Origin: Obrimoposthia wandeli
Lineage: Eukaryota
Length of the DNA stretch: 64,000 nucleotides
Direction: 5' to 3'
NCBI GenBank assembly: GCA_977020255.1
Contig: CDROCS010001058.1
Coordinates: 124,001 to 188,000 of the forward strand
A program made the position numbers and the translations under genes. Shown in pieces: positions 12,860 to 34,508 of this stretch. The first letter of the stretch is position 1; each line of letters starts with the position of its first letter. The notes beneath the pieces are model-generated. The model made no database searches. It saw only the letters and a list, made by a program, of their open reading frames with translations, and was not told where the DNA came from.

Positions 12860-13070
12860 TGGAGTCGACGAATGACGTTGCGGTATAAAGGCTCCAGTGA
12901 TCGAAACACTATCTAGCCTACAAAACGAAACCAAACTTCTACTGCCATGGGTGTGTACTTGGTCGTGTTGTGTTCATTTTGTCGACGGGACACTTGAGGT
13001 CAAAAGGATGAAGCGGCACATGATCTCGTATGCAATCCGTGAGTCTGACCGAATAACAGTATGTCGCATT
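12860..13070 (-). pseudogene. Left part of the decayed non-LTR retrotransposon interrupted by the Polinton
   Basis: GC-balanced sequence that is continuous with 28868 onward once the TSD CGCATT is collapsed. No strong motif on its own. Confidence 0.35.
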
Positions 13071-13152
13071 AGTAGGTGGATGTGTCCGGTCTAATCCACA
13101 CCCCCTCCCCCCACTGTCCTTTAAAACCGTGTATGTGTGTGGAGTGAAATTT
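13071..13152 (+). repeat. Polinton left TIR (82 bp)
   Basis: Matches the reverse complement of 28785-28867 with two substitutions and one indel. Confidence 0.95.
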
Positions 13153-13226
13153 TCTACCACCCCACCCAACACTCAAAAAAAACTAATTAACCCCATATAA
13201 CACCGTTTAAAATTGAAAATCTCATA

Positions 13227-15027
13227 ATGCTCCCAAAAAAGTGAGGAAGGTCCAGAGAGGCCGTCTAGTTGGCCAAAGCGTGCCCTCCGGGCCCGCGGTA
13301 GTTTGACGAGCAATACATATACAGGGTCGCGAAAAAATAGTACTCGCACCAGACTCAGACGAGGAGCTATTCACCGATGACGTTCCGTCAGATGGTGAGG
13401 AGGACTTGACTCCATTCATCGACGAATGCATACAGCCAAGTATCGGAGCCCCAGGAGCCAACGATTCGATGGTGGCAGAATTGGACGAGGACGAGTGGCG
13501 CCTGTTCACCGACGATTGGGATGGTCTCACTCCCTCTACAACTCCAACTCCGATAGCCGACAATACGATGCCTGATTCGTTCAAAAGGTCGCAATCTCCG
13601 ATACGTCCTGTTAGGAGAATAAAGGCGACGAATGAGGTTAGTCTATTAATTTATTTAAAATGTTTTTTATTTTCATTTTTAGAAACTTCAACTGGATTTG
13701 GCACCGTCAGTGACCACGGTGGAGAGGCTGATTGAACTGCAGTACTAGGCGAGTCAATGTAGCCAGGATGATCTCAGGAGTGAGCAGCGATACCTACCTA
13801 TTCCGGCTAAATTTGAGGTAAATTATTATAAATTAGTTAATTATTTTAATTATTCACATAGGAAGCCGAATTGGTGGAGGAAATTTGGGAGGAGGCAACT
13901 CTCAGACTACCCGTCGATAGGAAACAAGCGGCGGTTAAGAAACCTCGACGCCATCGGGTCAAAACCCACACGGTCCATCGGAAGAAGACCAAGTTGGTGA
14001 AACAGGCTAACCTGCCCGTCATCGAGGTAAATTATTTATATTTTTAAATTTTATTTATGTTTTTTGTTGCAGGAACCAATACAATTAACTGAGGAGACAT
14101 GGGGCATAATTTCTCCTTTCCCGCAGAAGCGAACGAGGCGGGCTGCTGTACGGAAGACTAGGCGTCTTAGAAAGGCGAAATCTTGTCTGCTCAAATCGAC
14201 CGAAGTAACGATAGAGCGGCAGGAAAAACTTCCGTATCAAATTATTGAGGTAAATTTTTACATATTTAAATATTTTTTAAATAAATGAACTTTATTAAAA
14301 ATTTTATAAATGTTTTCTTTTGCAGGCACCTGTCCGGATAATTGAGGAGGCTTGGGGAGAAATTACTCATTTTACCTAGAAACGGGCGAAGCGAGCAGAG
14401 GTGAAGAAGATGAGGCGCTCGAGAAAATGTAAAACCTCAATTGGCCATTATTCTGAGGCGGTGATTGGACGGCAGGAGATTATCCCATCTCCAGTGGACG
14501 ACGGTCCAATTTTATACGAGAGGATCCCAGTCTCACCGATCGAGATTAGTCCGCCATCAAGTCAACGACACCTGCAGGAGACATCACCGGCTTCTCCTCG
14601 TCCAACAACCAGCTAGAACTTAAAGAGGGCCTGGGATGAAGCTGGTTTGGACGAATTCCTGGCGGAACTGGATACACCGGCAATGCTTTCAGATTCGCGA
14701 GGGCAACAGGATGCCGTCTCACGCCAGCTTCAGCGTGAGAAGGAGGAGAAACAGAAGAAAGCTCCGCGGAAGATGAAGGCTACTGCTTCTATGTCGGGGC
14801 CATCAACATCGGCTACACCTCCTCCCAAAATGTTGCGGCAACTATTGCCAAAACCTGAGGGAATTGCTACAAACCAACCGGTGAAGGCGAAAAAGAAACC
14901 GGGCCGGCCAAAGAAGAAGGAGCCAGTACCGCTTTCTCCAATAATACTTAGTCGGAGGGATTTCGATCCGGATGATCCCAATGATGACTTCGTAAAGATG
15001 TTTAAGAATATAATTTATAAAAATTAG
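13227..15027 (+). pseudogene. Five-exon Polinton accessory gene: acidic patch, repeated basic exon modules, AT-hook-like KKPGRPKKK, conserved C-terminal RRDFDPDDPNDDFVKMF
   Basis: GT-AG introns at 13637-13682, 13818-13861, 14027-14072 and 14250-14325. All are phase 0, all follow a GAG codon, and they join the exons in frame. A few premature stops and a probable 1-nt deletion near the start. Homologous copy at 35860-36900 (-). Confidence 0.78.
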
Positions 15028-15307
15028 TTTCATATGTTTTCTTGTTAATATTTATTTAAATACCATCTTTAAGTTTATTAAAATATCAAGATGAAAAAAA
15101 TAGTTAATTTATTCGACTGTTATTGGATTAATAAGGAATCATTTAAATTTTTTTAGGTTTAAATATAAATGCAATGATTAGTTATAGATTTATTAAACTT
15201 TCATTTGATACATAAAAATATATCATTTCATGGCTTGTGATTGGATTAAAAATGTCTTAAATTTATATATATAGGTTCAAATTTATTAACCTCTTCATAA
15301 TTAAAAA

Positions 15308-15615
15308 ATGGAATTCATTAAATTGCAAAGTTTGGTAATGAAGATAGAAGCAAACATCAGAATAAATGAGAAGAAAGGGGACTTAAGAAAGAGGGTCCTC
15401 AATCAAAATTTGTATGCTGCTGTCGCGTCCGAGTGGAATCGAGGGTGGAGATACAAGATAGGAGGCTAGCAGAACGACGTCGGATCGTGGAGTGGAATAA
15501 GAAGATCGAATTGGAAAAAAGGAAGGTGGATGAAAAAAGAAGAGAAGAGATGGAAGATGTTCGGCTAGCAGCAAGAAAGAGAATCCTCCAAATTAAACCG
15601 GAAGAGTCCGTTTAA
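15308..15615 (+). pseudogene. Small charged, coiled-coil-like Polinton ORF (frameshifted)
   Basis: MEFIKLQSLVMKIEANIR... continues after a frameshift into ESRVEIQDRRLAERRR. Homologs on - at about 35280-35495 and 38500-38570. Confidence 0.55.
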
Positions 15616-15749
15616 AAATAATTTTTTTGATTATTATTTTGTCTTTATTGATTAGGTTACATAATTGTCTAAATATTTTACATAATTGTCTAAATATTTT
15701 ACATAAGCATACTAAATATAAACAATTTTATATATAATGTTTTTGTAAA

Positions 15750-15972
15750 ATGGATAATAAAAATTGGAATAAATTATACATTAAATTATCTCCAGATTTA
15801 AAGGAAGAATATAAAAAAAAATATTTTTCAGAAAATGATACTGAGGAAATTGTTGGATATAAATTATGTAATTTAATTTCGAAATATTTAGGTATGTTTA
15901 CATTTAATATAATTTATTTAAATATTCATAGGAGAATTGACAATATATACCAATCTTAACATGAAAGACTGA
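15750..15972 (+). CDS. Small two-exon Polinton ORF of unknown function
   Basis: MDNKNWNKLYIKLSPDLKEEY...KYL, then a 40-nt GT-AG intron (15892-15931), then in-frame GELTIYTNLNMKD*. Homolog on - at about 35040-35125. Confidence 0.5.
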
Positions 15973-16779
15973 ATCCTGAGTACTTTGTTATTTTAATAAA
16001 TTTTTGATTAATGATTTTTTTCGTTATAAACAACGGGATTTGCTGCAAATTTAGATAATTATGCAGGAATATATCATAGATTTTGAGTCTTTCATTAACA
16101 AAAATGGTGATTATATTATAAAATAATTATGTATTATGGATGTATGCGACGTTTTTCATCCTTTGCATTTCATATTTCAAATAGATATCCCGTTTAAAAG
16201 TTTAGATTCTAAGAAAAAATTTACTAATTTATATCTAACTAATTACTTTTATTTATTAAAATGGAAAGAAGGACATAAGGCTTTTTGTGAAATATGTATT
16301 TTCGATACAATAAAATCTAATTTTGATATAGAAAATGGAATTTTTTATGTTTTAGATGAAATGGATGGCAAAAAGTAAAAGACTTTAAAAAAATATTTTC
16401 CCAAATTGAGGTTGAATACTTTAAATATTTCACGTGATCATCTATTAAAAATTCCACGAAATATTTGCTGTCCATATCGTAATCATGGTGACCATTGCGC
16501 ATATAAAAAATGTTTAAGTCTATCTTATTATTATTTGACATGTATATAAACAATTCTTCTAATTGGAGGAATTCATTATTAAAATTGTACAACTAATTAC
16601 AAATAAGCCTTTTGATTGGAGGAATAAAAATATTTTTTTCAACCAATAACAGATAAACAATCCTTTTCAGTGGAGGGATAAATTCAATTTTTTAATCCAA
16701 TAGGAAAAGAGCATGTGTGCATAAATTTTAGTATATAAGCAAACACTTTCTTCATTTAAATCCCCGACTATTTGAAACA

Positions 16780-17948
16780 ATGAATATGGTAAGAATCTAT
16801 ACTTATTATTTCTTTATTAATATTTATTATTTCAGATTACTTGTATCCTGTTTCCAGCATATTGTGGTGCTTCATCTCCGCATGGAGGAGAGACCTGCAT
16901 GAGATAATGTCCGCCTACTATCGGACAAAGTCTCACGAGCTTCACTTCTTCGTCTGCCCCTTCTGCAGAACAATGTAGGAGAAGGAGTTTCGAGACTTCT
17001 TCGGTGAACATCGAGCTCATCTATCCTGTTTCACGGCCAACAACAAGAAGAGGGATTAATGCGTGATTCGCAGGCCGCTCCAGCACCTGCTCCAATTCCA
17101 GTTGCAGTGATTCCATCCGTTTACGGTCCTGCCATTGGTCCTTCTCTCACGGCTCCTGATTCTGCTACTGCACCATCCACTCAAATGACTAACAATGAGT
17201 GGATGAATGACATCTCCCAGGAAGATTTTGAGGAGATGGCGCCAGCAACCCAATTCTCAAACAATGACTGGATGGAAAATATTACCCAGTCAGATTTCGA
17301 GATGGAGCAGCCTCAGTGGAGCGACAACAGCTGGTTGGAGACCATAGAGGAATCCGATTTCGTCGAGTTCACGGACGATAGCTGGATGGATTCTGTCAAT
17401 GAAGAGGACTTCCAACCAGCTACAGTTGGATTGCCTTCATTAGGTATTTTTTATTATTATTTTTCAGATTATTTTTTAAAATTGTAATTATATATATATT
17501 ATTTTTAATTAAATATATATTATTGGAATTATATATATTTTATTATTATTTTTTATTCAGGAAATACCGTGATACAGCCGTCATCCGCTACGACAGCTAT
17601 GCCTCCACCATCACGAGTGCCTAGATCGATGTTAGCACGTCTTAGAGGTAATAATATTTAAAAATATATTTATTTTTTAATATATTTATTTCAGCAGCAT
17701 CAACTTCTACAACAGCCGCTTCTTCATCGGCAATGCCAGCTACTACCTCAGCTACTCCAATTTCAAATGCAGCTTCTACAACTGACATTGACTCATCATT
17801 TGCGGCAGCATCGTTTACTACAGCTGCGATTGCCTCAACATTGGCAGCACCTACTACAGCAGCTCTTTCCACATCAGCAGCGATTGCCTCAACATCGACA
17901 TTTAATATAAATAGTTGTCTTCCCGTTCAATTAGAGCGAGTTAAGTAG
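16780..17948 (+). pseudogene. Spliced leader gene: CxxC/His motif, PAPAP linker, four acidic W(M/L)xx(I/V)xxxDF repeats, Ser/Thr/Ala-rich exons; probable N-terminus of pPolB
   Basis: Introns at 16789-16835, 17444-17560 and 17648-17694. The last two join ORF 17059 and ORF 17733 in frame. Homologous exon boundaries are present in the copies at 5.5-6.4 kb and 33.0-33.8 kb. Confidence 0.72.
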
Positions 17949-20900
17949 TGGAACGACTCTAGTTAGAATTCACGATATTAGCTTTGTTATAACAAAGTTC
18001 ACTGACATGATATATCTTTCGGGGAGTTCATACATTCCTTCACCTAAATCTCTTCAACTTTCACGTTCCATTGTTAACGTACAAAACAGTGATAACCTTT
18101 GCTTTCTGTATAGCGTGTTGGCCATCCTCAAAAGGGGTGTAATTACTGAACATAGAGAGCGTGTCAGTAAATATACCCCTTTTTTAAATGAATTGCAGTA
18201 TCATGGAATAGATTTTCCTGTTAAATTAACGGTGATATCAAGATTTGAACATCTTAATAACTGGAATATTAATGTATTCAAATATAATACTGATATCCCA
18301 GTTAATGTAACAGATGAGGAAATATTTAAAAATCCTTTTGTAGATGTAATTTGTAGGAGCAAAAATGAGGCGACTCAGGTCAACTTAATTTTGCTCGAAC
18401 AGAATAAAAAATTCCATTATGCTGCAATTCCCAATTTAGATCGTCTTCTAAATTTAGATAATGGAGCCTCACCGGTTAGGATAAGGTGTAAGTGGTGTCA
18501 TAGATGTTTGCATGGGTTCCGATCCGAGCTCTCTTACAGCAAACATCTGACATTATGTTCACTGAATCCTGATGACAATACGCTATATAGCATGCCTAAG
18601 GATAAGGATTTAAAATTCAGGGATTGGGCAAAATGCATACCCGTGGAATTCAAGGTGTATGCAGATTTTGAGTCAATTCTAGCATTGCACAACTAGTATG
18701 AGAGTATTCACCTACCGGCTTCGACAGGACTACTATTCTTAGGCCCCAATATTACACAGTGTCATAAATTTTCCGGTCTAAATTGTATTTTAGATTTTAT
18801 GTTAAAATTAGAAGAATTAGGAACAACAATTGTCAAACCGTGGTATGATCTTAATGCTCATCAAGCAATGATTATGACAGGCATAGACTGGGTTAATTTT
18901 AATTCTTGTAGATTATGTTATTTGTGTGGAACCCAGTCTAAGTTAGTCAGAGATCACGATCATGTTAAGGGGCGATACTTGGGAGCGGCGTGCAACCTCT
19001 GTAACCTTGGCCGTCGTCTCCCTAAAAAACCACGAATTCCCATCCTATTTCATAACCTCAAAGGATATGATTTGCATCATATACTTAAATATGCATTGGG
19101 TACATTAAGCTCTTGGGAAATTTCATGTATACCTCAAACTTCAGAGAAATATTTATCTTTAACTGCATATACTGAATTCTGTAGTTTAAGATTCATAGAT
19201 TCTCTGCAGTTTTTGAGGGGGTCTTTAAAAAATTTAACGGCATCTTTAAATGCATGGCCAATCACACAGTCAGTGTTCCCAGCTTTGGTTAACGATAAGG
19301 GGATTTTTCGCATAAATTTGCAAAAATCTTTGCAGATTTAGAACATACTACAGAAATCCCACCCATAACTGAATTTGAAGGTGTAAGTCTTCAAGACTAT
19401 AATAAGGCCCGTACATTTTGGGCGAATATTTGTTGAAATCTTTTAGAATATATGCTTTATTATATGAAGTTAAACATTTATCTTTTAGCTGATGTTTTTG
19501 AGTCCTTTCGTGTAAAATCTTTAGCAGAAGATGGGCTAGATCCAATGCATTTCTTTAGTTTACCTGGTCTTTCATGGGCAACAGCAATAAAAACTCTTAA
19601 AATTAATATCGAGTTATGGCTAGATCCCGCGATGTATCAAATGTATGATTATGGTATACGCGGTGGAATGACTTTTGTCAACAAACATCATGTTGTCAAA
19701 AATCAATCCACGGAGATTCTGTACATCGACATTAATAATTTGTATGGGTGGGCGCTTACTCAACTTCTACCTCATGCCAACTTTAAGTGGATTTATGACG
19801 AGGAAGAGTTGAATAAGTTGATGACAGATTTGGCTACTGTTGATACAGTTTCATCAGACATCGGCTATTTGGTTGAGGTTGACTTAACAATCCCTTCCAA
19901 AGTGCATGATAAATCAGATGATCTTCCAGTAGCGCCTGTTCATCAATGCCCACCTAATTCAAAGGTTAAGAAATTATTGTTAACCCATGAAGACAAGGTG
20001 AATTATGTTGTGCATTGGAGGCTTCTTCAATTCTACTTAAAGTTGGGAGCGAAAGTTACTCGAATTCATCGTGCTATAAGCTTCAGTCAAACCTTTGTGT
20101 TTAAAGACTATATTGAGAAGAATTCTAGAAAACGTAATTTGGCCACTAGCAAATTCGATCGGACTTTTACAAGTTAAAAAGTAATAGCCTCTTTGAAAAA
20201 ACTGTAGAGGACTTGCGGAAACGTATTTGTCTACGGTTTTGCAATGATGAGCGTAAATTAATAACATATACTAGCAAGTACAACTTCAAGCGTAGTTTTA
20301 CAATTGCAGATGACTTGGTAGCAGTGCTATTAGGAAAACAGAGTATTTGTCTCGATCGACCGAGTTATATAGGTCAAACGGTTTTAGACATTTTTAAACT
20401 CAGAATCTACGAGCTTCAATACATAGAATTAGAGAAATATCGACGAGAATTCAATTGTGAGATCAAAATCGCAGCTGGGGACACTGACTCTTTCTTTTTA
20501 GAATGTAAAAATGTTAGTTTAGATAATCAATTATTACCGGCAATGTTTAGGGACAACTTACTTAATACCCATAAATATCCCGCTAACCATCCTCTACATT
20601 CTATGAGTTTAAAGGATATTATCGGAAGATTTAAGGATGAAAGCGAGGGACAGGTTTCGTATGATGATTGTATTTTCCTACGCCCTAAATGCTACAGTTT
20701 ACATGCATCTAATAATACATGTTCAATGAGAGCTAAGGGTGTGGGAAGAAACAATCTTACACATGAGGCCTACCAGAAAGTTTATGATACTGGGTGTATT
20801 GAAAGCGTTGAGCAAACTAGATTTATTTCAAGAGCCCATCAACTGTATTCCCATAAATCAACCAAAATCGCTTTGAGTAGTAATGACGACAAGCGCTTTT

Positions 20901-20989
20901 GGGTAGAAAAGAACGCTAGCCTGGCTTATGGACACTTCAGAATTACAAAAGGTTTTCATTTTTTTGATTTTTTTAGTTTAGTTTTTTAA
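17945..20989 (+). pseudogene. polB: Protein-primed family B DNA polymerase (pPolB), broken by one nonsense codon and two frameshifts
   Basis: GSSYIP..IVNVQNSDNLCFLYSVLA (terminal-protein region); YADFES (ExoI); HNLKGYDLHHI (ExoII); CYLC..VRDHDH..GAACNLCN (EndoVII-like insert); LADVFESFR (ExoIII); YIDINNLYG (motif A); KSNSLFEK (motif B); GDTDS (motif C); FLRPKCY. Confidence 0.95.
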
Positions 20990-21211
20990 AATTTTAGATC
21001 CCTATGGCACCTTGACTCTAACTTTTTGTTATTTCAAAACATTTTTTAGGTTGGACCTTATCTTTGCTGACAGATCTCATTGTGATGTTGTGTTTAATAA
21101 ATGTATTAAAAAAATTTCGTCTTATGTCTTTTATTATTTTACCCTTATATTTTTAGAGATTTAAAAAATAATTCAAAATAAAACATTAAAAATATTTATT
21201 TTTATAACACA

Positions 21212-21594
21212 CTAATCGTTTTGCAACGATAACCATAAAATACATAAATATCCACAGTTTCTCGTCGCAGGATCCTGATATTGTATCTTATTGTAAAATA
21301 CTCTTCTTCGTCCTTTTAGAATAGTTGAAACAAGTTTGATAATGGATAATACATTGCAAGTGGATCAAATACATGTATTGTCCACTCTCTAACATAAATA
21401 GCTATCCAATGTTCTCCTGGTAAATTCGAAGTATGAGTATTGATAATGTAACCTCCAGATTGAAAAAATGGAATCATATCAATAGGATAAACTCCATTGA
21501 ATTTATCACCCAGGACCTTCTCTGCTGATTCTTGTACTTGTACTGAACTAAATAAAAATTAATAAATATAAATTTAAAAAATGTCTTACTTCAT
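21212..21594 (-). pseudogene. Adenain-like cysteine protease with a 42-nt intron after codon 2 (one frameshift)
   Basis: ATG AA, then intron GTAAGA...TTTAG (21589-21548), then T TCA GTA CAA gives MNSVQVQESAEKVLGDKFNGVYPID...INTHTSNLPGEHWIAIY...FDPL. After the frameshift: QYQDPATRNCGYLC. Catalytic His, Asp, Gln and Cys are visible. Confidence 0.88.
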
Positions 21595-21595
21595 T

Positions 21596-22821
21596 CTATA
21601 ATATGACAGTTCTGTTTTTATTGATTTGTATTTCCGAATCAAACACTCCGTAAATAAGCACCGTAGTAGGATGTGTTAAAGCTGCATTGAACTTAATTTC
21701 TAGTCGTAAATTTCCATCCTTTGGTAGTTGGCATTGGTTTATATCAAAGTCTGGTACCAAAACAAATGTGAAGAAGGGGCAGCTGCTTTTAAACTCAGTG
21801 AAAGAAATACCATTGTTTATATTTTTATCTAGTTGGCTCAAATTCCAAACAATATATTGCGTATAAGCCAAAGCATAAGCATTACCTTCGAAATCTGTTT
21901 TATATGTTTCGCGATAATCAGTATTTCTTGAAAGTGTCACTGAACCTACATTAAGATTCTCAAATTGAGTTTCATCTGTCGTATAATCTCCTAGATACTT
22001 TGCAGTTTTTTGAAAAGAAATTAAAATGAATTTCGGTAATTTTACATAACCAAAATTTGATCCTTATTAAAAGCTTGTGTACCCGTACCTAATGAGTAGG
22101 ATATAAGTTTAGTTTCTCTAATAGGATAACAAGCATTGTTTTTTTCCATTCCTATATTATGTGCCATTAAAACTGATTGCTCGGTTTTAACTCTTCGGAC
22201 ATACAATTTTTCATCCAAAATATCAAGTCTAGGTTTTAGAACGTCCGTGCTTATCAAAGAAAAATTCCATTTATTACGTTTCAAACGAAGATGTACATTA
22301 ACACCGGAAATTAAATATTTCGGTTGTTCAAAGAAATTCAATCTCAAAGACCCACACATTTCGTAAGCTTTAGAACCTGCAATCCATTCTTTCCGAGTTG
22401 CGACCGTTTTATCATAACGAATGGTTGCCAAATTGGTATTTTGAGTATCAGTACTATAATTCAAAAGACTTTCAATCAAAGCTTTATGAGCATAGGAAGA
22501 ATTTCCACCTTCAATTTTGACATTATTAAGAGTAACAATGGCATCACTAAATAAAGAATTAAAGAGATAATTTACAGGTGTTACATCTGCATTTTCATCT
22601 AAATTAGTGCCATCCCGATTTAATACTTTTATTTGAACATAAAGCAAAGTATCATTCAAATCTAAATACTCACTATTGGAACCATTAATATTAAATTCTA
22701 AATCAGTTAAAGTGGTTCCTGAAACTGAGTTAACTAGAAATATTTCTTCAAAGGAAGCATTATCTACAACTACTTGTGGAAGTGGTTTATAAAAATTACA
22801 CAATTCGGTTTTGGCGGAACT
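21596..22821 (-). pseudogene. Major capsid protein (double jelly-roll, hexon-like); start codon lost and one frameshift
   Basis: SAKTELCNFYKPLPQ..LEFNINGSNSEYLDLNDTLLYVQIKV..YAHKALIESLLNYS..QPKYLISGVNVHLRLKR..LPKFILISFQ..GNLRLEIKFNAALT..VLIYGVFDSEIQI, typical of Polinton MCP. Confidence 0.92.
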
Positions 22822-23198
22822 CTTTTTGCAAATATTGTTCCTTCAGCTTTCTTACGTTTGTTTATATTGATTTTTTGCTTATTTTTACTTTTAAATCCAC
22901 TACCTCCTTGGCTTTTATTTGATTTACGTTTTCTAATCAAATTAGCAACTTCAGGTAAAACATTATCAAGTTCATCAAGCGCATGCTTCTTAAAAGTTGG
23001 TATTAGTTTATTGTCCTTAGATGAAAGGTAGTCCTTTCCTAATTTTGATATAAATCGCCCGAATCTCTTTAAAAGAGGAAAGGCAAATCTACCTAATGTT
23101 CTAAGCCAGCCAGATCCGTATTGTTTACCAACAAAATATGGTAATTCTCCACCTTGTTGGCTTTGACTATAAGCTTCAATTATTGCTGGATTCGCCAT
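22770..23198 (-). CDS. Putative virion core / membrane-active protein with QxG(G/S) protease-cleavage-like motifs
   Basis: SQQGGELPYFVGKQYGSGWLRTLGRFAFPLLKRFGRFI (amphipathic segment) and a basic C-terminus. Homolog at about 52640-53030. Confidence 0.75.
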   Translation of the reverse strand: MANPAIIEAYSQSQQGGELPYFVGKQYGSGWLRTLGRFAFPLLKRFGRFISKLGKDYLSSKDNKLIPTFKKHALDELDNVLPEVANLIRKRKSNKSQGGSGFKSKNKQKININKRKKAEGTIFAKRVPPKPNCVIFINHFHK

Positions 23199-24240
23199 TT
23201 TGTTTTCTTAAATGTATTGTTAAACTTGTCTTGGCCCCGTACGTGAAATCTATTAGTTGTCCGGAATCATCTCTAATATTTACTTCAATATTGTTTATGG
23301 AAAAGAGAGAAACTGGAAGATACATTGGTTGATCTATACACATACCGACAGTGTCCCCATCTCTAGTTTCATTTTTAGATATCCATATTGTTCTCAAAAG
23401 TGGAACTCGCTGTCCTCCTACAAGCGTTGGTTCTATTAAATTAGTATAAATATATAAATGATTAACAGCATTTAAAAGTTTTGCATTATTTTTAGCTTTT
23501 ATGGTTTTTATTTTATGGGTTTCAAAGGTATTTCTGTTTAAACCAAGGTTTTTAGCGAGTTAATCAACAAATAAAACTCATATTATATTTCTCTTTACTG
23601 TAAACGTTATTTTACCATTTCTTAATGTTACACATTTATCGAAATATTCACTACATTCCTTCTGTATTAATTTACAGAAATTCACTTCACTATCTAATTT
23701 ATAATCTTTTGAAAACATTTTCAGTTCCACTACATACTTTGGTCTCGTTTCAACTAAAAACACTTTTGTTACTCTATCAGGAACATTTTTAAACGATTTA
23801 GATGAGGCTATATCAGATCTCTTCATACCTACTACATGTCCACTGTCAAAACCGAATTGAAGAGCTTCTCTATCAGATCCAAATATAATTTGAATAGGTT
23901 TTGAAAAATGTTTTAGTCGATTTTTAAATCTGACTTTGTTTTTTTCATATATTACTTTCACTACTTTATCTATACAATTGTAATAGAATTTTCCTTTACT
24001 ATCAAACCCAATCACAACTTCAATTGATTTTTCATGATCAACTTCTTTAGTAAACGAAATATGTGAGTTTTTCTTGATAGTAATTAGAGAATAATAAAAG
24101 GAAAATTCTGTTAAAGCCGCTTCCCATTCTCCTTGGAGATTTATAGGATTTTCCCAATCGATAATAAAGCTACTAGCGTAATTATCTGGTTGAGTATTTG
24201 GACATCCGTTACTAGGTAAAACCATATACATAGACTTCAT
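23176..24240 (-). pseudogene. Minor capsid protein (single jelly-roll, penton-like), disrupted
   Basis: MYMVLPSNGCPNTQPDNYASSFIIDWENPINLQGEWEAALTEF at the N-terminus; PMYLPVSLFSINNIEVNIRDDSGQLIDF..TSLTIHLRK at the C-terminus. Confidence 0.88.
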
Positions 24241-25265
24241 ATTATATTAGATGCTGATAACCAAGTTGGATCTGAATAACCATGCCATTTAACATAGTAT
24301 TGTTTATGTTTACCGGCACCCTTAGATTTTAATATTTTTGAATACGGAAAACGCTAGGTTTATTTGATATTATTTGTAGTTTTTGCTCGTAAAATTTACA
24401 GTGAACGATATTATTGTCAGCATCTTTAATAGTATACATTATTGGATTACTCTTTTGATCAATTTTACTTATACAAAATATTTCATCGCTCCATTTCTGA
24501 TCAAAGTTTTTAATAAATGGAGTAGAGCTAATTTTCGAAATTCGGACATATTCGTTTTTCTTATATTTAGCTTTTTTAATATTTTCTTTTTTATTCCTGT
24601 CCATCCAAATATCCATAGAATTTTTATTAGTAACATCAACAGGTCTCATTCCCTTGAGACCTCTATGTTCCGAGTGATTATATGCATGTATTATTTTAGG
24701 TAAAACGTGGATCCATTTTTTTATTTCCTTCTTTTGTGAAATACTTTTTTATTCGATCTCTTAAAGTACGATTAAATCTTTCTACTACTGCTGCATTATA
24801 CTGTGAAAACACAGAGTAATGATTTATATTATTTTGTTTAAATAAAGATTGAACTTGCTTATTATAAAATTCTTTTCTTAAATCAGTTTGCACATTTTGT
24901 GGAATGTCCTCTTTTAATATTTCTTTAATGGCTTTAAGCATAGCTATTGAAGACTGTGCTTTAACTGGAATTGCACGAGCAAACCTGCTAAATACATCAA
25001 TACATGTTAAAATATATCGGTATCCCTTATTAATGGAAGAATATGAGATCATCTCCATCAAATCCATTTGCCATAAATTATTAGGGCCGCTGGTTTTGTA
25101 AGCTCTAGTTGGAAACCTTCTTCTCATCGGCTTGTTCAGACTGTAGGCTAGCTGGTCGCTCAGCCATTTCTGCGTTTTCTTGTAATTTTGTTTTGTTCTG
25201 TTTGCTAATTTTGAAACTCCTGTGTAGCCAATTGGATCTTTTGGATGGAACCATATCTTCTCCAT
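24238..25265 (-). pseudogene. Retroviral-like (rve) integrase with chromodomain-like C-terminus, frameshifted
   Basis: WQMDLMEM (D), VQTDLRKEFYN (D), AAVVERFNRTLR (E); WSDEIFCI; KQYYVKWHGYSDPTWL. Its stop codon overlaps the mCP ATG. Confidence 0.93.
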
Positions 25266-25350
25266 TACTACAATTTGAATAGAAAAAAAAATTAATTTAG
25301 GTAAAGAAGGGCTAGCACCTATATCTTTAACTGATTTTATAAATAATTGT

Positions 25351-25645
25351 TTATGAACGTGTCGCAGCTATAATACTACTGATAATTGAAGCAACAACTG
25401 GAATAACAGCCCCTATGAAACCACCATTCTGTTTTACTTTAGCAATATCTAGAAGAGGTTTTCTATATTTCTTTAATATATTTTTCCGATTTCCAACTTT
25501 TACTCGACCCAAAACTATAATATACAAAACTGCCAATAAATCATATACAACAAAAGATGGAAATGCTTTAGAATAATCGTTCTCTTATGAGAAGAGGCTT
25601 TGACTAAAGCTTTAAAATAGGGTATGCTTCTTTGTATTTCTTCAT
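25351..25645 (-). pseudogene. Conserved small Polinton protein ending QNGGFIGAVIPVVASII (frameshifted)
   Basis: MKKYKEAYPI..KALVKASSHKRTIIL..VLGRVKVGNRKNILKKYRKPLLDIA..QNGGF followed by a hydrophobic helix. Confidence 0.65.
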
Positions 25646-25676
25646 TTTAATAAAAAAGGTTCAATTTGAATATTGT

Positions 25677-25817
25677 TTATATTCGAAGCCATTTAAGTTT
25701 TTTTTTATTTCTAACTACAGATTTGATTAATTTTTTCACTTCTTTTTTCTTAATGATTCTTTTTTTTGATTTTTTAGGCTTTGCTTTACGTTTTACTATC
25801 AACTTCTTAAAATGCAT
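25677..25817 (-). CDS. 46-aa highly basic (23/46 K+R) protamine-like protein, below the ORF-track cutoff
   Basis: MHFKKLIVKRKAKPKKSKKRIIKKKEVKKLIKSVVRNKKKLKWLRI*, packed between the ATPase and the QNGG protein. Confidence 0.6.
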   Translation of the reverse strand: MHFKKLIVKRKAKPKKSKKRIIKKKEVKKLIKSVVRNKKKLKWLRI

Positions 25818-25824
25818 TGTAAAT

Positions 25825-26462
25825 TTATCTTTTATGATTGTTCTCTATTTGTTTATAAACAGTTACTCCCTTAGAATTAAATATGTCGGTTAAAACACGT
25901 AAATCATCTGGGTAAGCTTGTGTAAAGTCAATAAATATATACCCATGTGCTTGTTTAGCAGCATCGTGGAATGAATCAACTAGAAAGTTCTTATTTTGGG
26001 GAAATGCCTGTTTGGCCACGAAATCAACAACTGTTTGATCTCTAGGATTTTTAAATAAAACTAAGTAATGTGCATTAAGATTTCTTGTTCTATGGTGACC
26101 TCTTTGGTGAAAAAGATTTTGAGTGACTGTTACTTCACGATGTCTTGAAATCTTCGTAAATAAATGATTAAAGTCTGATTCCTTGTTAGCTTCTTTATAC
26201 AAATCATCAATTATTATTACATCTTCTATTTCAATCTTTCACACCAATTTGCATCAAATCCTTCAATAAATTTTATACCCTTCAACTTGCAAACTTCTGT
26301 TTTGGTTAATCTGCTTTCCCCTCCTCCACCATGATGCCAATAAATATTTTTGAAACTAGATTTGAAAAGAGATTCATTTTGCAACAATTTACATACGAAA
26401 TGTGTCTTTCCACTTCCACTGGGACCAACTATTTGAAATACAGAATTATTATTTAGCTCCAT
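25825..26462 (-). pseudogene. A32/FtsK-like packaging ATPase, frameshifted
   Basis: Walker A IVGPSGSGKT; Walker B region IDDL; SRHREV..QNLFHQ..RTRNLNAHYLVLFKNPRD..HGYIFIDFTQ. Confidence 0.93.
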
Positions 26463-26499
26463 TGCATATACTCTTTCATTTTTAATATTGTTTATATTA

Positions 26500-26781
26500 T
26501 CATAGAAGTTTCCTTATTGAAATGTACAATGTTAGAGCTATTGTAGAAGAAATACAAAAATTAATTAATGAATATTTGGTTATAATTTTATTTATTTGTG
26601 TACGATTTCTAAATTCTCGAATAACGTGCGATCTAACCAATATTTCAATGTTATCTCTTGTTATATCAGTATTTTTTAATTCTGATAAAATTTCTTTACC
26701 CCTAATTTTTCCAGAAAATATTTCGTCGGCAAGACGATCCACTTCATTGTCTCTATTTATAGTATTATTCATTTGAAACAA
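26500..26781 (-). CDS. 93-aa Polinton ORF with a C-terminal hydrophobic segment, unknown function
   Basis: Intact ORF in the same operon-like run; C-terminus YSLINFCISSTIALTLYISI. Confidence 0.45.
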   Translation of the reverse strand: MFQMNNTINRDNEVDRLADEIFSGKIRGKEILSELKNTDITRDNIEILVRSHVIREFRNRTQINKIITKYSLINFCISSTIALTLYISIRKLL

Positions 26782-26800
26782 TAAGTTTAAACGGGTTTCT

Positions 26801-27167
26801 TTATATAAAAGATAATAAGATGTAATAAGATATATTTTCTAAAATCAAATCAAAAATGTCTGGATAATCGAATCTTTTCAATCCCAATATCATAACTTTA
26901 CCACTGGAAAATATATTTACACATAGCGATTTTAACTTCAAATAACTGAGAGTAGGAAAAATTTCTGGTTCAAACATGCATTCTTCTTTTATTTTCTCTG
27001 CAGTTTTTAAAAGATTTATATGTTTCCCAAGATTAGCCAAAATCGTGATTGATTGTATTAAAATTGTCAAACTTTTCCACATATTGTCTCGGCTTCCATT
27101 CATTGAATGGTAAGTACGAAACATCATCTTCTGTTCTACCTTTATAATTTATATTTACGAGTTTCAT
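26801..27167 (-). pseudogene. TATA-box-binding protein (TBP)-like gene carried by the Polinton
   Basis: IQSITILANLGKHINLLKTAEKIKEECMFEPEIFPTLSYLKLKSLCVNIFSSGKVMILGLK aligns by eye with a TBP core repeat (IQN.V...DL...I.L...YEPE.FPGL.Y....LLIF.SGK.VITGAK). The upstream frame gives MKLVNINYKG..LPF..KPRQYVEK. Confidence 0.72.
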
Positions 27168-27416
27168 TAGACTAAAATTGTATTCTATAAAATCTTCTTT
27201 ATATATGTCTGAACCTGCTTTTTTATTGCACGTTTCTTGTAATTATCTTGCAAACCTATTATAATTGGATGATATATTTCTTCCAATAAAATTTGATTTT
27301 TAATATGGATTTAGTCCAATCAAATTCAATGCTTTAGTTATATTAACCAATGAGATTCATGTCTTTGTTAGAAATTAGTATAAAAGAATGCGCCATTGGA
27401 GGAAAAATCACAGTAA

Positions 27417-27877
27417 ATGCATTCATATCAAAGACAATTATCAACGATGGACGATAGCCAACGGGTATTAAGCGATGATAAAGATATAGAAATGTTTGAA
27501 GAATCGGATAAGGATATGTATGAAGAAGTGAAACAATATTTCAAATACAAAGTCAGATTCTTGAAGAAGGCTCAACTGATTGCTTTAGTAAATCCTGTGA
27601 CAATTGAAAGAAGAAAGTTCAGCTACTATCTATCAAATATTCAAAAATCAGATTTTCAATATCTTAAACAGAAAGTTGAAAAGGCAGCAACGAATTTTAT
27701 ATCCGAGGAGCCGATGAAGCATTTCTAGATGACTATGGAAAATATGTTGATTTTGATGCGTTTCCGAAAAAGAAGCAATGGACTCTAACAATTCGACTTT
27801 ATGGTTACAAGAAAGATGAAATGGGAACAAAGTTGCCTATGTGGAAAATTGAACGTGCTCATATTTCTATGTTTTAA
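27417..27877 (+). pseudogene. Polinton ORF, paralog A of a tandem pair (frameshift near 27707)
   Basis: LKKAQLIALVNPVTI...SDFQYLK, then after the frameshift QWTLTIRLYGYKKDEMGTKLPMWKIERA. Similar to 28027-28437. Confidence 0.6.
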
Positions 27878-28026
27878 CTTTTTTATTTTGCGTGTAATAA
27901 ATTGTAATCGGTTTTACTATGTTTCTTTCATTTGGCAATTAATAATCAGTTTTATTTTTTAAATATTTGTATATTATATGTATTTTTTTATAAACATTGT
28001 TTTTTAATCAGTTTCCTTATTTTAGA

Positions 28027-28437
28027 ATGGATTCTCTTCTGAGATGTGTAGCAAATTTTTATTATCCAGAAAGAATTTCAAAAGGAAAACTATGTAATAT
28101 ATTAAAGAGGCATCAAATTATACGAGTTAGGAATCCTGTGAAAATATCAAAAGTGGAGAATAAATATCTCATCGAAATTTTAACCACATCTGATATTGAT
28201 CAATTGAAAAATATTTTGGGAATTTACATTCCTGATTATGTATATGAAGGAAATTGTTTCCAGCTTGAAATTGATCCCAGTCTGGATTTTAAAGATGATC
28301 TAGGATATTTGATTGCTCCAATTCTAGATGAAGAACTATGGAATATCTCAATACGTCTCAATGGATATTTTGCTGATGACGGGAAAATGCAGCCTCTTTG
28401 GACTTTGAGTGACGCCAATATGTTAATTTATGTTTAA
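28027..28437 (+). CDS. Polinton ORF, paralog B; possible OB-fold ssDNA-binding protein
   Basis: LKRHQIIRVRNPVKI...SDIDQLK...LWNISIRLNGYFADDGKMQPLWTLSDA. The fold assignment is inference only. Confidence 0.6.
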   Translation: MDSLLRCVANFYYPERISKGKLCNILKRHQIIRVRNPVKISKVENKYLIEILTTSDIDQLKNILGIYIPDYVYEGNCFQLEIDPSLDFKDDLGYLIAPILDEELWNISIRLNGYFADDGKMQPLWTLSDANMLIYV

Positions 28438-28784
28438 TAAATATTTTGAAAAATAATTTTGTCTCGTATTTTGTTTTTTCTCCTCTAAATTATATAGATC
28501 TGATCAATTTTTTATCCTATAAATTCTAAAACTGACATAGATATTTTAAAAAAACATGTAGTAATTTATTAATCTAAAATCTTTCTTAAAAATAGTAGTA
28601 ATATATTATTTGAAATCTCGTCTGCGATAAGCCGCCGGGGCCAATATGGATTCCCGTGGTCTTCTCTAACCACTTTTTAGATTCGCAGTAAAATTTTTAA
28701 AAATTGTGGTGGGGGGCCCTTCCTTCCCCCTTTGGGTAGAATGGAGACATACATACACGAAATTTCACTCCACACACATGCACG

Positions 28785-28867
28785 AAATTTCACTCCACAC
28801 ACATACACGGTTTTAAAGGACAGTGGGGGGAGGGGTGTGTGGATTAGACCGGACACATCCCTCTACT
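28785..28867 (-). repeat. Polinton right TIR (83 bp), with an adjacent ~25-bp subterminal duplication at about 28752-28805
   Basis: Inverted match to 13071-13152. CAT(A/G)CACGAAATTTCACTCCACACA occurs twice in tandem. Confidence 0.95.
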
Positions 28868-30140
28868 CGCATTATTAAGGCCTGGATATCATTGAGCAGG
28901 GACCAAATTAGAGCCTAGTTAGGGCTACACTGATTCGGCGCGTGAAAGGCGCCCTACTTCTGATATCAACATTGCTAGCAGCTGTAGAACGAGTCAAGTG
29001 AGCTGGGCTCATTGTGCCTAGGAAACCACCTTTTTGGGTTCGATGAATGACACCCCACGCAAAGTAGCCTATTGAGCCGTTGTAGAGTGCTGATGAGATT
29101 ATTTTTGAAACCAGAGACGTAATTAGTGGAGATGCCAGTGGGCTTAGCTGAAACGGTATAATGCTAAAAAACGTATAGAATATAAGAAATATTATTTCTG
29201 TTCGAGAAATAATGAATTTAGTCTCAAGTTCAGTCATGAATATTTGTACTCAAAAACTGATTCCTTGCTCGTTCTAAAGAAAGGAACATAACAGCCACCA
29301 TGTCAATTTGAGGTTATAAAATCTGTCAATCAACCTGGTCCCCTACTAAGGATAGATTGTCATCATTGTCATCCTGTGTCCAGCTATTTCAAGAAGTCTT
29401 TATTTGGAGCAGACAAAGGCAGATGTTTGTGCCTTGCTGAGACGTCTTTCAGTTCTTCCAATGCAGCATACGAGATCCCTTTCAAGACCTGTGAAGGTTT
29501 GCCCAACGTGCTTGTCATGCGCAGACACAAGACCAACTGCCATCGGACTTCGAGCAGTACATATACGAGTTTACGTCAAGATTTTTGCTTTTTCATGACG
29601 GTCTTCATAACTCATCTCATTTTTATATTGTATTCTTTTTCCACTGGCACAAATCCTTCGAGGTTAATTCTCCCATGTCCATCCACCTCGGCCACGTTTA
29701 TCACGTAGTGAGTAAATCGAATCTCAGACGAGAGTGGATAAACACTCCTCATGCATCATATTTCTCACAGGTCCAGAGAGCAGTCTCTGGTCTTCTAAGT
29801 CTCACTGACATCAGTTGTGAGCAGCTCGAGCCTCAGATACATGTGTACCCATCTGTCCTAGTCAGCTTGAGGATACTTGCGCCACCGATGTAGATATGCC
29901 CATCGTTGAGAGAGTGCGCCAGATATTTCAGCATACAATCTCCACCGCACTGTCGACCATACACTGCAGGATGGAGCTTATATACATCACCAGTGCAACG
30001 CTGTCTGCTTACGAGAGACAGTCGTTAACTCTTCTGTGGAACTGATCGCCTGCAAAGGGCACTGTGCAGAATTCCTTGGTCGCATGGTTGATACCGATGT
30101 TGAAGAGCAGCATAGACAGTGAACAACTAATTCCATTGTT
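28868..30140 (-). pseudogene. Decayed non-LTR retrotransposon reverse transcriptase (host site of the Polinton insertion)
   Basis: One frame reads SCSLSMLLFNIGINHA...VNDCLS*ADSVALVMYISSILQCMVD, consistent with the LSPLLFNI and LAYADD..L...LQ.M RT motifs. Confidence 0.58.
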
Positions 30141-30539
30141 TGGCTCATCAGGATTGTGATTAAAGAGAAATAAATTAATTTTAACTTCACTGGTGCTATT
30201 CTGTACAAAGTTGGTAAATATATCGTTCACTTCACGTCTAACTCTTCGTTTGCAGTGTGTTGAAATGTAGTTGATTGAAATGTAGTAAATGTTAGTTAAA
30301 GTAATTTCCTTTCTAAGAAATTTTTTTTTTCATAGAAGTTAATTCTTTTTCAGTTTAAGACAATCCAAGTTTAATTTTTAATTTGTAAAGAAATATAAAA
30401 ATAATCGAAAATGTTGTTTCAGAATCAATAATGTCTAAAAATGACGAAATGTTTATTATTATTTAGTTTATTAACCTTTTCAGACATTATTCTTAAATTG
30501 ATGATTTTTCAAAATTAAAGAAACCAAAGGAAGCTCAAA

Positions 30540-30800
30540 TATAGAGAATATTGGGACAAAGTTCGTTGGTGGTGCTCATATGAAAATGAAATAAGTCAAT
30601 TAAAAACACTTTTGAAATTAAGTTTACCAACTTCTAATTAAAGTGTTTTTTTTTGGATTTTCATTGTTAGAATTTTTATTTCAGACAAACATGCTGTACA
30701 TGACTTAATGTTTAGCAGTAGAATAATTGAAACTCCGGTACCATTATGGAGATCGATGAATCCCTATGTTTAAGGGGAAAATTAATAGAGGTCGATTGGA
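30540..30800 (+). pseudogene. Merlin/IS1595-like transposase relic
   Basis: WWCSYENEISQLK..LSLPT and GTIMEIDESL(frameshift)FKGKINRGRL resemble the G.IVEIDES.F.KRKYNRGR motif. Confidence 0.55.
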
Positions 30801-33800
30801 GCCTCAATTATGAATATTATGAGGGGAACAAGATTCATATCCATTGAAGATGTTTCTTGAAAAATTAATCTGGAATACCCTGAAATGAAACAAAGTATGT
30901 TTTCAGCTTTTATTCCCAAGTTGAAAATTCCTAAATATCAAGACAAATAAATATTGTAATTTTCACGACATTCTTAGCCACCTTGATGATTCTTCCTGAT
31001 TTAATTTGACGTTCGAACGGGATTGGCAGTAGTTTCTGGCTTTCTGGATTTGCAATATCTTCGTTTACTTCCTTCGACATCAGTTATCTTGTTGATTCTG
31101 TATCGATTTTCTCGTATGGGTGCTTTATGCTCGCAAAATAAGGCGATAAAATAATAATTAGCTTTGCCTCTTTCACTGAACGTTCGTTCATCATTTCAAA
31201 CAATTCTTATGCATAATGTTTATGTCTGGTCTTGTTAGAAATGTTTGTATATATATTCCAAAAACATAAAATCGAGAATTTAAACAATCGATCATGCGAA
31301 GACTTACTTGGGGTTATGCATACCAGAAATGGGATTGAGCTTTAAGCATGATTCAGTACAAGCTCCCAATAGCGTTTATTCAACATACATTCATTATTTA
31401 GTGTCTTCGTAACAAATTCGTGTATTAATTTATCAGAACAATATATAACACGATATCTAACGATCTTTTGTGATCTCCCGAAAATATTCTCTCAGTTTTT
31501 GTTTATATAAATAACACTGAATGATTCAGTTTTTCACCATAAAATTTTCTCGTTTGTTTAACCAATCCATCTAGTATCTGCTGCTCATCATCATTATCTA
31601 CTAGGTACTGTTCCACTCTGCTGAAGACAATAGACTTATCTTAGTTGAAGAGTCTCCAGCTTTCTTATTTTACATAACTTGTATCATCCTTTCTTTGTTA
31701 TATATATATATATTTGTAGAAACATTCTTACGACATTGACGATGATATGCGCATTAAGATCTTACGATGGTTTGAAAATAGTGGTTCTTAATTCCTATAA
31801 TTTTAATATAAAATCTAAAAGTACAATTTGAACCAGAAATTTTATGATACTGGGTTATATTGGCCTAAGAATAATAGTCCTGCCATACTGTTGTGCAAAG
31901 CTAAATTTTTCAAAATCAGCATACACCCTAAATTCAACGATAGCACATTTTGCCAATCTCTAAATTTTATATTTTTATCCTTTGACATACTGTACAACAC
32001 ATTGTCATCAGGATTCAGTGTACATAATTTCAAATGTTTGCTGAATGGGAGCTCAGATCTGAATCCATACAAACATCTATGATACCACTTACACATTATC
32101 CTAACATGTAAGGCTGCATTGTCTAAATTTAGAAGATAATCTAAATTGCAAATAGCTGCAAATTTATTGTTGGGCTCAAGCAAAATTAAGTTGACTGGAG
32201 TCCCTTCATTTTGCTCCTGTGAATTACAAATGCAAAAGGATTTTTAAAATTTCATCCAGTGTTATATTTTCTGGAATATCGGTATTATATTTGAATACAT
32301 TAATACTCAAGTTATTCATGTGTTCAAATTTAGATATCACAATTTCATTTAGAAAAGGAGAATATTCTCTTTGCTCAGTAATTACAGCCATTTTAAGGAT
32401 GGCCAACATGCTATACGGGAAACAAAAGTTATCACTGGTTTGTACGTTAACAATAGAACGTAACACTTGAAGAGATATAGGTGAGGAAATTTATGAACTC
32501 CCCGAAAGATAAATCATATCAGTGAACTTTGTTAAAACAAAGTTAACACCGTGAATTCTAACTAGAGTCCATCCACTACTTAACTCGCTTTAATTAACAA
32601 GTTTTTCATCTAAATTTATTCCTATATTAGTTACAAAGTTATCACAAAATACTGTAGCCCTATGTGAAATTATTCAAGTTTTAGTTTCTTCTTTTACATT
32701 TTTAAACTGAACTGTTGCACAAAATTTTACCTTAGTATGTCTTAATTTAGTCACTTTTGATTTTAAAAGATTCTCAATATTTGAATCTATACTTACATTC
32801 ATTAATATTTTATTATCCATAGGCAACTTTACTATAACATATTTATTATTTCGGTGATTTTTAATATTTGTACCGTTTTTCTACGTATTTTGGGTAGGGC
32901 CATATTTAAAAAATTGGCCTCGTCTTTTTCTGCATACCATCGCCGACAAACCTCCCTCTAATTGAACTGGAAGTCCACTTGTGGTTGATGTCGAGACTAC
33001 GGTAACTAATGTTGATACTGCGGCTGATGTTGGTTCTGCAGTTGAAGAAGTGAATCGGGTCATTCTGAATGCTGTTCTAGAAGATGGTGGTGCTGCCTCT
33101 GACGATAATGTCGTTAAATACATAGCTGCTGAATAAATAAATTTCAATAAATATATTATATATTATAATTTATAACAGATTACTTCTTAATCTAATCAAC
33201 ATAGACCCTGGCGCCACCATCGATGATCGAGACTTTGGAGTTCAGGACTCTAAACCTCGGGATGTGATTGCATTTGAGGCCTATAGTGTAGATTATGCAG
33301 CTGCTGAATAAAATATATTAATTAAATTATATATTTTAAACATTACCTCTAAAGCTTGTAAACAACAACTTAAGCACTCGAGGCATCATATATGGGGGGT
33401 CATGCTAGCCGTTGCAGAGTAAGTCACCAGTGTTGACTGCTTTCCAAATAAATATATATAATATTAAATAATGTATGTGACCCATTTACTTAAATGGAAA
33501 AAACATAATAAATAATCAAATCTGAAACCCAATTAAGTAGATCCAACTGATACTGCAGATTGTTGGGGGAAAAGGTATTCTTCGTCAATGGCATCCATTC
33601 GGTTTTCATCGGTCAGCTGAAAATCGGATAAGCCGATTTCGTCCAACCAGCTGTTGTCGCTCCATGAAGATGAAGGCTCTCTATTTTGAAATCCGACTGG
33701 GTTATATGATTCATTCAGTTGTTGTTCGAGAGTTGAGTTGCTAGATCCAACTTACCGGATACTCCTTGTCTTCCATAACGAGAAGATGTAACATACCTAC

Positions 33801-33848
33801 TCATAAAACCTCGGCCGATATTAAGCGGAAGTGGTGTTAAGTTTAAGA

Positions 33849-33966
33849 AGTTTCACTTTAACTTTTACACAATTTCAATAAATTTCACTTTAACTTTTAC
33901 ACAATTTCAATAAGTTTCACTTTAACTTTTACACAATTTCAATAAGTTTCATTTTAACTTTTACTC
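33849..33966. repeat. Tandem repeat, ~3.6 x 32 bp
   Basis: Unit TTTCACTTTAACTTTTACACAATTTCAATAAG at 33851, 33883, 33915 and 33947. Confidence 0.92.
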
Positions 33967-34377
33967 AAAAAGGCGATGTTTAAATGAGACACTTTTCTCA
34001 CATGTTCTTCTACGAATGCTTTCTAATGCTGGCGTAAGTCCACGTCGAGAGTGTCGTCCTTTGACCTGTTCCTCGACGTTCCCGCGAATAGTGGCTCCGA
34101 GCTGTTCTCCGAAAACGGCGTTATGGAAATTCTGGCTTGATCTCGACTCGCTCGGTGCTCGTTCAAATGCTGGAAGTGAATAGACGATTCTACTCCTTGT
34201 TATTTCGACTTACTGATTCTGCTGTGTCCAACTGGTTTGTTGATCCGTCTCCGTTCCTCTGCTTGACGTGATACTCGGTTTCTCTTTTCTGGGAATCAAG
34301 GAAGGAAAATTCTTCTTTTTATATAATTTACCTTTTTCTTTTTATTCAGACACTAATTGGCTGTGACTGACTATTCA

Positions 34378-34508
34378 GAGCACTTAGCTGCGACTGGGAT
34401 GATTGCGAGCACTCAGTTGTGACTGGGATGATTTACAGCATTTAGTTGTGACTGGGATGATTCCGAGCACTTAGTTGCAACTGGGATAATTCTGAGCACT
34501 TAGTTACA
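34378..34508. repeat. Tandem repeat, ~4.5 x 29 bp
   Basis: Unit approximately GAGCACTTAGTTGCGACTGGGATGATTNC. Confidence 0.9.

Follow-up and report, generated by a model that had tools for sequence, protein, structure and literature searches.

The window, a 64,000-nucleotide stretch of Obrimoposthia wandeli DNA, contains a decayed Polinton/Maverick element with the remnant of a gene for a small TATA-binding protein (TBP)-like protein, here called mini-TBP, and several copies of a 7-bp word, YATAAAC, placed upstream of element genes. The features are as follows.

13071..28867, no strand assigned: decayed Polinton/Maverick (adintovirus-like), 15,797 bp, with inverted termini, a 6-bp target-site duplication and Pfam matches to PolB and rve
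15717..15723, plus strand: YATAAAC box, 33 nt upstream of the ORF at 15750
18007..20989, plus strand: a further feature of the element, from the ORF list and Pfam search
21599..24240, minus strand: capsid block of presumptive minor capsid, PZ and major capsid genes, with boxes at 23293-23299 and 22860-22866
24332..25265, minus strand: rve integrase in two frames, with boxes at 25349-25355 and 24302-24308
25675..25681, minus strand: YATAAAC box, 36 nt upstream of the start of a presumably PW-like gene
25828..26462, minus strand: packaging ATPase, split over two frames
25851-25857, minus strand: YATAAAC box inside the ATPase, encoding its terminal YKQ
26490..26496, minus strand: YATAAAC box, 34 nt upstream of the ATPase start codon
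26801..27059, minus strand: mini-TBP exon 2 remnant, covering the C-lobe with the EPE(I/L)FP stirrup and NIFSSGK; the exon start is missing
27060..27167, minus strand: mini-TBP exon 1 remnant (N-lobe strands 1-3), truncated by a deletion at about 27060
27197..27205, minus strand: canonical TATA-like word TATATAAAG, 38 nt upstream of the TBP start codon
27417..27874, plus strand: conserved neighbour gene of no known family, adjoining the TBP gene in many relatives
27989..27995, plus strand: YATAAAC box, 38 nt upstream of a 136-aa ORF at 28027

The Polinton setting proposed in a first-pass annotation of this DNA was borne out. The inverted termini of the element begin with AGTAG and are flanked by the target-site duplication (13065-13070 and 28868-28873), and both a protein-primed PolB (PF03175) and an integrase (PF00665, rve) score over their cut-offs; the TBP gene lies on the same strand as the ATPase/integrase block, collinear with it as claimed. 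The ATPase piece itself matches Pox_A32 weakly (E 0.015), and the cut-off of that profile is passed by three copies of the ATPase elsewhere in the genome, one of them adjoining a TBP gene. The capsid-block genes carry presumptive labels, given by position and not by a profile match; the label of the PW-like gene is likewise presumptive, as is that of the putative capsid gene of another locus (L069), which has no Pfam match. Since the genes of the window element carry stops and frameshifts, this copy is a fossil. Elsewhere in the window, the regions at about 29700-36000 and 50500-53400 hold inverted remnants of more Polinton copies, 70-88% alike to the main element, positions 8420-10249 form a tandem array of seven copies with a 255-nt period (86-96% alike), and 40344-40850 (plus strand) encodes a DEAH-type helicase exon, presumably FANCM-like.

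The TBP repeat claimed for 26801..27167 was recovered by profile search: the ORF at 26801-27127 (minus strand) matches PF00352 over residues 22-85 with an E-value of 1.8e-11 and 44.2 bits, against a curated cut-off of 22.9. When compared with an intact natural homologue, the frame beginning at 27167 aligns with the N-terminus (46% identity, 37 aa) and the downstream part follows at 49% identity over 76 aa. The upstream frame had been described as a truncated first repeat; it is indeed the start of that repeat, but its shortness is native to all intact relatives. In a similar way, the deletion that had been suspected is real, whereas the accompanying frameshift dissolves into a single event. 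A DNA search of the genome retrieved siblings 96-97% identical that split at one query point, and compared with five of five aligned siblings the window copy is missing 130-134 nt at about 27060, a region which in the siblings runs from the end of a 44-codon exon 1 through a GT-AG intron of 34-40 nt into exon 2. Because sibling TBP genes are split by an intron at the same place, the two-frame layout of the window copy is partly native. By these alignments, the window carries a deletion-broken copy of a gene for a roughly 145-residue, two-lobed TBP-fold protein conserved in one Polinton lineage, and this copy cannot encode the mini-TBP protein.

The mini-TBP intron is a putative one, recognised by its GT-AG shape. 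Across 38 loci of the window family, counted by hand after an automatic pattern had scored three family-A loci intronless in error, both splice ends are present in 25 and one in four, with three mis-scored and six without an anchor. An intron of 34-40 nt interrupts the same glycine codon in L021, L025, L108, L150 and siblings; it measures 39-40 nt in L025, which belongs to another family, and in the metagenome contig L108. The TBP gene is intronless in further element families (L022, L140, L174), and the host TBP gene contains an intron of 47 nt. In four sequencing runs of unspecified kind from one sample the stretch is evenly covered, intron included, and no intron-sized joint occurs among the best 15 of 65 joints, neither of which carries weight either way on splicing.

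Intact relatives of the broken gene are widespread. In a first look across the 1.35-Gb genome, the TBP profile returned 19,768 candidates, of which 150 were scored; these are candidates, not copy numbers. As a separate observation, the ATPase returned 31,069 first-look candidates, again not copy numbers, which points to a very large Polinton load. P0001, an ORF of 144 aa that is naturally intact and comes from another family, has 62 relatives among 72 candidates and, used as a query, matches 74 metagenome loci. Polinton core genes are present at 34 of 75 metagenome loci, a set that takes in six weak or canonical TBP matches, and the share rises to 25 of 32 among loci of at least 3 kb and to 13 of 16 among those of at least 5 kb. 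Conversely, ten of eleven genome stretches picked by their ATPase carry the mini-TBP gene, the eleventh being one without that region. The median dN/dS was 0.23 and the maximum 0.54 over 53 non-independent metagenome pairs, leaving out own-genome pairs with L050 as unreliable. Judged by this recurrence and these substitution rates, the mini-TBP gene is a stable member of one Polinton lineage and is under purifying selection.

The genes around mini-TBP differ between families. The neighbour gene of the window (27417-27874, plus strand; L069:1788-2138 in a relative) belongs to no Pfam family and adjoins the TBP gene in 18 metagenome loci after dereplication; it is a possible partner of mini-TBP. 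In another Polinton family, a BIR (inhibitor-of-apoptosis) gene is located directly downstream of the TBP gene (L025:643-1452, minus strand), with a similar ORF in L027.

Phylogenetic comparison with eukaryotic and archaeal TBPs, as suggested in the first-pass annotation, placed the mini-TBP family in a clade of its own. In a tree of 54 rows, 25 of the 26 family rows group together (100/100), and the TBPs of the host, of other eukaryotes and of archaea fall outside this group; the single outlier is a misassigned archaeal protein. The shortest forms are nested within longer ones (97/86), and the tree points to no donor. Scans of IMG/VR with the TBP query, the ATPase and the PolB recovered no relatives; the sole IMG/VR match to the TBP profile (L061) was rejected as a canonical two-lobed TBP of a larger virus. 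The phage collection gave no match, an Atlas search with a mini-TBP homologue returned generic TBP clusters only, with taxa based on few members, and a search for a TBP-less element of the same clade as the mini-TBP Polintons found none. These data bear on another account of the locus, namely that it holds a fragment or pseudogene of host TBP, captured recently and without a role. The broken state of the window copy fits such an account, which holds for that copy only; for the gene family it is refuted by the separation from host TBP and TRF (100/100), by purifying selection and by recurrence across many element families, and we give it almost no credence. The host itself has several TBP paralogues (L004 and L005 on C60 and C1092, L001/L002 on C238, L003 on C968), one of which, found at two loci, is intronless, strongly diverged and 214 aa long with two repeats.

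The fold was assessed on the intact 144-aa homologue. Its AF2 model (pLDDT 95.5) has helices in the C-lobe only, and Foldseek (E 3e-9) returned the two-lobed TBP saddle, in line with the earlier assignment; superposition on human TBP 164-336 takes in all 144 residues (Z 14.0, rmsd 2.4 Å). Intact mini-TBP is thus predicted to fold as a two-lobed saddle without N-lobe helices. Helix H2 of the N-lobe, with its basic patch, is absent from this model, and the segment that holds it, 43 residues long in each of 25 canonical TBPs, has a family mode of 30; longer members, with segments of 36-42 residues, may keep a short N-lobe helix. Compared with cellular TBP (PF00352; PDB 1cdw, 1c9b, 1mp9), mini-TBP shares the two-lobed saddle (144 residues superposed, Z 13-14), three of the four phenylalanines and both TFIIB-contacting glutamates, but is about 30 residues shorter, has no predicted N-lobe helices and has lost the N.L3 phenylalanine.

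Residues were counted in 152 full-length family rows, one of them a misassigned archaeal TBP, following the position scheme laid out in the available part of PMC7221094. According to the same part, TFIIA, TAF1, Mot1 and Brf1/2 bind the L2/H2 region of the TBP N-lobe, and C.L3.2 and C.L3.4 form the acidic C-lobe pair that contacts TFIIB. The DNA-intercalating phenylalanines, singled out earlier as worth checking, are kept at three of four positions (N.L5.1 in 146 rows, C.L3 in 151, C.L5.1 in 150) and lost at N.L3, a variable position with phenylalanine in only 14 of 152 rows, so that DNA bending may be reduced. The TFIIB pair is nearly invariant: C.L3.2 is acidic in 148 rows (Glu in 142, Asp in 6) and C.L3.4 in 151 (Glu in 150). 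In N.S5, Val is replaced by Arg in 144 rows and Thr by Met in 148; in C.S1, Asn is replaced by Ser in 130 of 152, and in C.S4, Leu by Asn in 149 of 152. From TBP structures, we take these changed positions to face DNA, where mini-TBP thus presents Arg, Met, Ser, Thr and Asn in place of the Val, Thr, Asn, Val and Leu of cellular TBP.

TBP and TFIIB are a textbook, DNA-dependent pair. No element-encoded TFIIB was found, the genome as a whole yielding 29 PF00382 candidates against 19,768 for TBP, and the five TFIIB-family loci that were examined look like intron-split host genes. A TFIIB/Brf1-like gene occurs in multiple copies (L178, L180 and L181, on C1245 and C1124, and L179), and on C1245 two such matches flank a PolB-bearing element.

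A shared motif upstream of the structural genes, which the first-pass annotation had proposed to look for, was found as YATAAAC. An unbiased count of the 6-mers that precede ATPase, PW and capsid genes found ATAAAC in 53 of 55 dereplicated windows against a 5% background that itself contains the ATAAAC sites, the relatedness of these windows inflating significance. Within 100 nt of the start, and against a background of 4%, YATAAAC precedes 18 of 20 ATPase, 16 of 16 PW, 9 of 9 MCP, 7 of 10 mCP, 5 of 6 PZ and 9 of 11 integrase genes, as compared with 3 of 18 neighbour genes, 0 of 3 PolB genes and 1 of 51 TBP genes; first-Met starts of decayed ORFs are unreliable, and the labels MCP, mCP, PZ and PW are presumptive, assigned by position. 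The TBP gene is instead preceded by a canonical TATA word, in only 29 of 51 cases (background 9.8%). The box lies about 36 nt upstream of ATPase and capsid-block genes, at 32-41 nt from the ATG in 16 of 18 ATPase matches and 33-43 nt in 13 of 16 PW matches. Relative to start codons, the boxes of the window element lie at −34 (ATPase), −36, −33 and −38, and its TBP gene has TATATAAAG at −38. ATAAAC shows no excess over the window as a whole (89 vs 77.8), so the signal is positional. L113 has 16 box sites, all on one strand, a number reached by 0 of 200 shuffles, and L140 has ten, reached by 27 of 200. Sense and antisense counts are 105/12 for the word ending in C, 39/53 for A, 44/41 for T and 29/20 for G; since the strand bias is limited to the C-ending word, the final C matters.

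The resemblance that we see between YATAAAC and AATAAA raises the alternative of a 3'-end signal (polyadenylation or termination) or a translation signal with no connection to the TBP gene; the box does often overlap or adjoin the stop codon of the upstream gene. Its distance to the downstream ATG is tight, however, while that to the upstream stop is variable; in L069 the boxes fall within coding sequence, 20-39 nt before the upstream stop. Furthermore, no listed same-strand gene ends near the window box at 15717, the nearest such upstream ORF ending some 690 nt off, as would suit a promoter better than a 3' signal. We consider a 3' or translation signal very improbable.

Gene and motif were also compared in elements without a TBP match. 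The same genome holds a further, low-copy Polinton-like lineage (L154, L156, L164, L168) with another PolB type, a DJR-like capsid, an A32 ATPase and an integrase, and the TBP profile has no match in this lineage or in two partial contigs (L138, L139) of another. In these controls the motif stands upstream of 3 of 49 ORFs, all three PolB pieces, whereas in a TBP-carrying element on the same contig as a control (L174) it precedes 5 of 10. As the controls comprise two lineages only, with a different PolB type, shared ancestry alone could explain the co-occurrence of gene and motif. The TBP-less lineage has a phospholipase-A2-like domain joined to its integrase (L154:1104-2291); in L113:9089-9490 such a domain stands alone.

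Forkhead-type factors bind a word similar to YATAAAC. The box could accordingly be a shared promoter whose reader is host TBP or some other factor of the host, with mini-TBP serving in repression of early promoters or in DNA binding during replication or packaging. The reliance of the co-occurrence on only two outside lineages is compatible with such a host reader, and in crystals host TBP does accept a TATA variant with C(-25), as recorded in the entry PDB 1qn3, with Hoogsteen pairs described in the available part of PMC4402545. Set against this are the strictly kept final C, with no comparable strand bias for A, T or G endings, the avoidance of the box by the TBP gene itself (1 of 51) and the near-invariant, family-specific changes on the DNA face, as expected of a changed reader. 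We regard a host reader of the box as unlikely.

The reading we prefer, at a probability of roughly 0.6, is that the element supplies its own late-promoter factor in the form of intact mini-TBP, which is predicted to bind YATAAAC and to bring in TFIIB and RNA polymerase II from the host. What follows on binding, specificity, timing and partners we infer. Early in the cycle, host TBP would read the canonical TATA observed at the mini-TBP gene, TATATAAAG being the putative early, host-read promoter in the window, and in some families, as the intron shape suggests, the host would splice the transcript. The ten-stranded DNA face, with its three Phe wedges and fixed polar changes, might then confer specificity for a box ending in C, while the conserved E-x-E stirrup would bind TFIIB, presumably that of the host because no TFIIB was found on the elements. 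The model-predicted loss of helix H2 could free mini-TBP from TFIIA, TAF1, Mot1 and Brf1. The term "late" is drawn from gene class, and the integrase carries the box too.

Two functions had been suggested at the outset, a late-promoter factor and a decoy for host TBP. The shared motif, the TFIIB glutamates and the three phenylalanines back the former; the decoy is the weaker, because the N-lobe surface for host regulators is lost. In a broader form, mini-TBP would act as a dominant negative in host shutoff, sequestering host TFIIB or blocking host TATA boxes, for which the near-invariant stirrup and the loss of one Phe wedge and of the activator-binding helix can be cited. Such a role leaves the DNA-face changes and the box before structural genes unexplained, would be confined to TFIIB-type partners once the surface for TFIIA, TAF1, Mot1 and Brf1 is gone, and sits poorly with the keeping of mini-TBP in very many germ-line copies; we consider it quite improbable. 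Returning to the late-promoter factor, its fullest version is an autonomous two-stage Polinton programme in which host TBP starts mini-TBP and the helix-stripped product reads a private YATAAAC and plugs into host TFIIB. We advance this version tentatively, at slightly less than even odds; within it, mini-TBP would, with the same reserve, be the smallest two-lobed TBP among those compared here.

Among known systems, mini-TBP most likely works in the manner of the beta/gammaherpesvirus vTBP, although our comparison places it outside the vPIC system. Both are virus-encoded TBP mimics with a more polar DNA face and a variant TATA on late genes; in these herpesviruses, as reported in the available part of PMC12529657, late promoters carry TATTWAA and early genes use host-type promoters. 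ORF24, the vTBP of KSHV, is described there as comprising several domains: it contacts Pol II directly, depends on five viral partners and, by prediction, excludes TFIIB, whereas the Polinton protein is a bare 144-aa core that keeps the TFIIB stirrup and has no known partner. Longer mini-TBP relatives number 2 among 5,806 candidates, a weak test for an extra Pol II-binding domain. Nucleocytoviricota TBPs share a viral TBP fold without the eukaryotic N-lobe basic signature (BFVD matches; PMC7221094, in the part available); according to that source most large-virus TBPs accompany a viral TFIIB and C.L3.2 is about 40% conserved, in contrast to mini-TBP, whose C.L3.2 is acidic in 148 of 152 rows and whose elements yielded no TFIIB.

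A TBP-like gene on an element with an adintovirus-like PolB may have been noticed before. The maps of MELD viruses by Starrett et al. (2021) include the abbreviation 'TBP' in the legend of Fig. 5 (PMC8502044), a label without analysis in the text as available, which may or may not denote the mini-TBP family; one supplement of that paper has no occurrence of 'TBP'. This label is the only mention of a Polinton TBP found in the printed sources at hand, and earlier annotation, for example in supplements or Repbase, may exist. TBP is not mentioned in the available main texts of PMC11071308, PMC10748475, PMC12220804, PMC11131425 and PMC8097293 or in the accessible portions of 2026 preprints. Vertebrate Mavericks, as described in the main text of PMC8097293, share the inverted termini, 6-bp duplication, PolB, integrase, ATPase and capsid block; they have eight intronless ORFs, and neither TBP nor TATA appears in that text. 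The elements described here, in contrast, add a transcription factor, which in some families bears an intron.

From the standpoint of protein function, mini-TBP amounts to a natural deletion experiment, in which the N-lobe helices and one phenylalanine prove dispensable and the TFIIB stirrup and three phenylalanines do not. It may also be an example of an altered-specificity TBP that arose naturally. A dedicated factor and a 7-bp box make the timing of Polinton capsid genes, and the question of self-made particles, testable. If the proposed programme is true, a single protein would constitute a promoter switch, and there would be regulatory evidence that Polinton "transposons" have a virion-making late phase without helper viruses.
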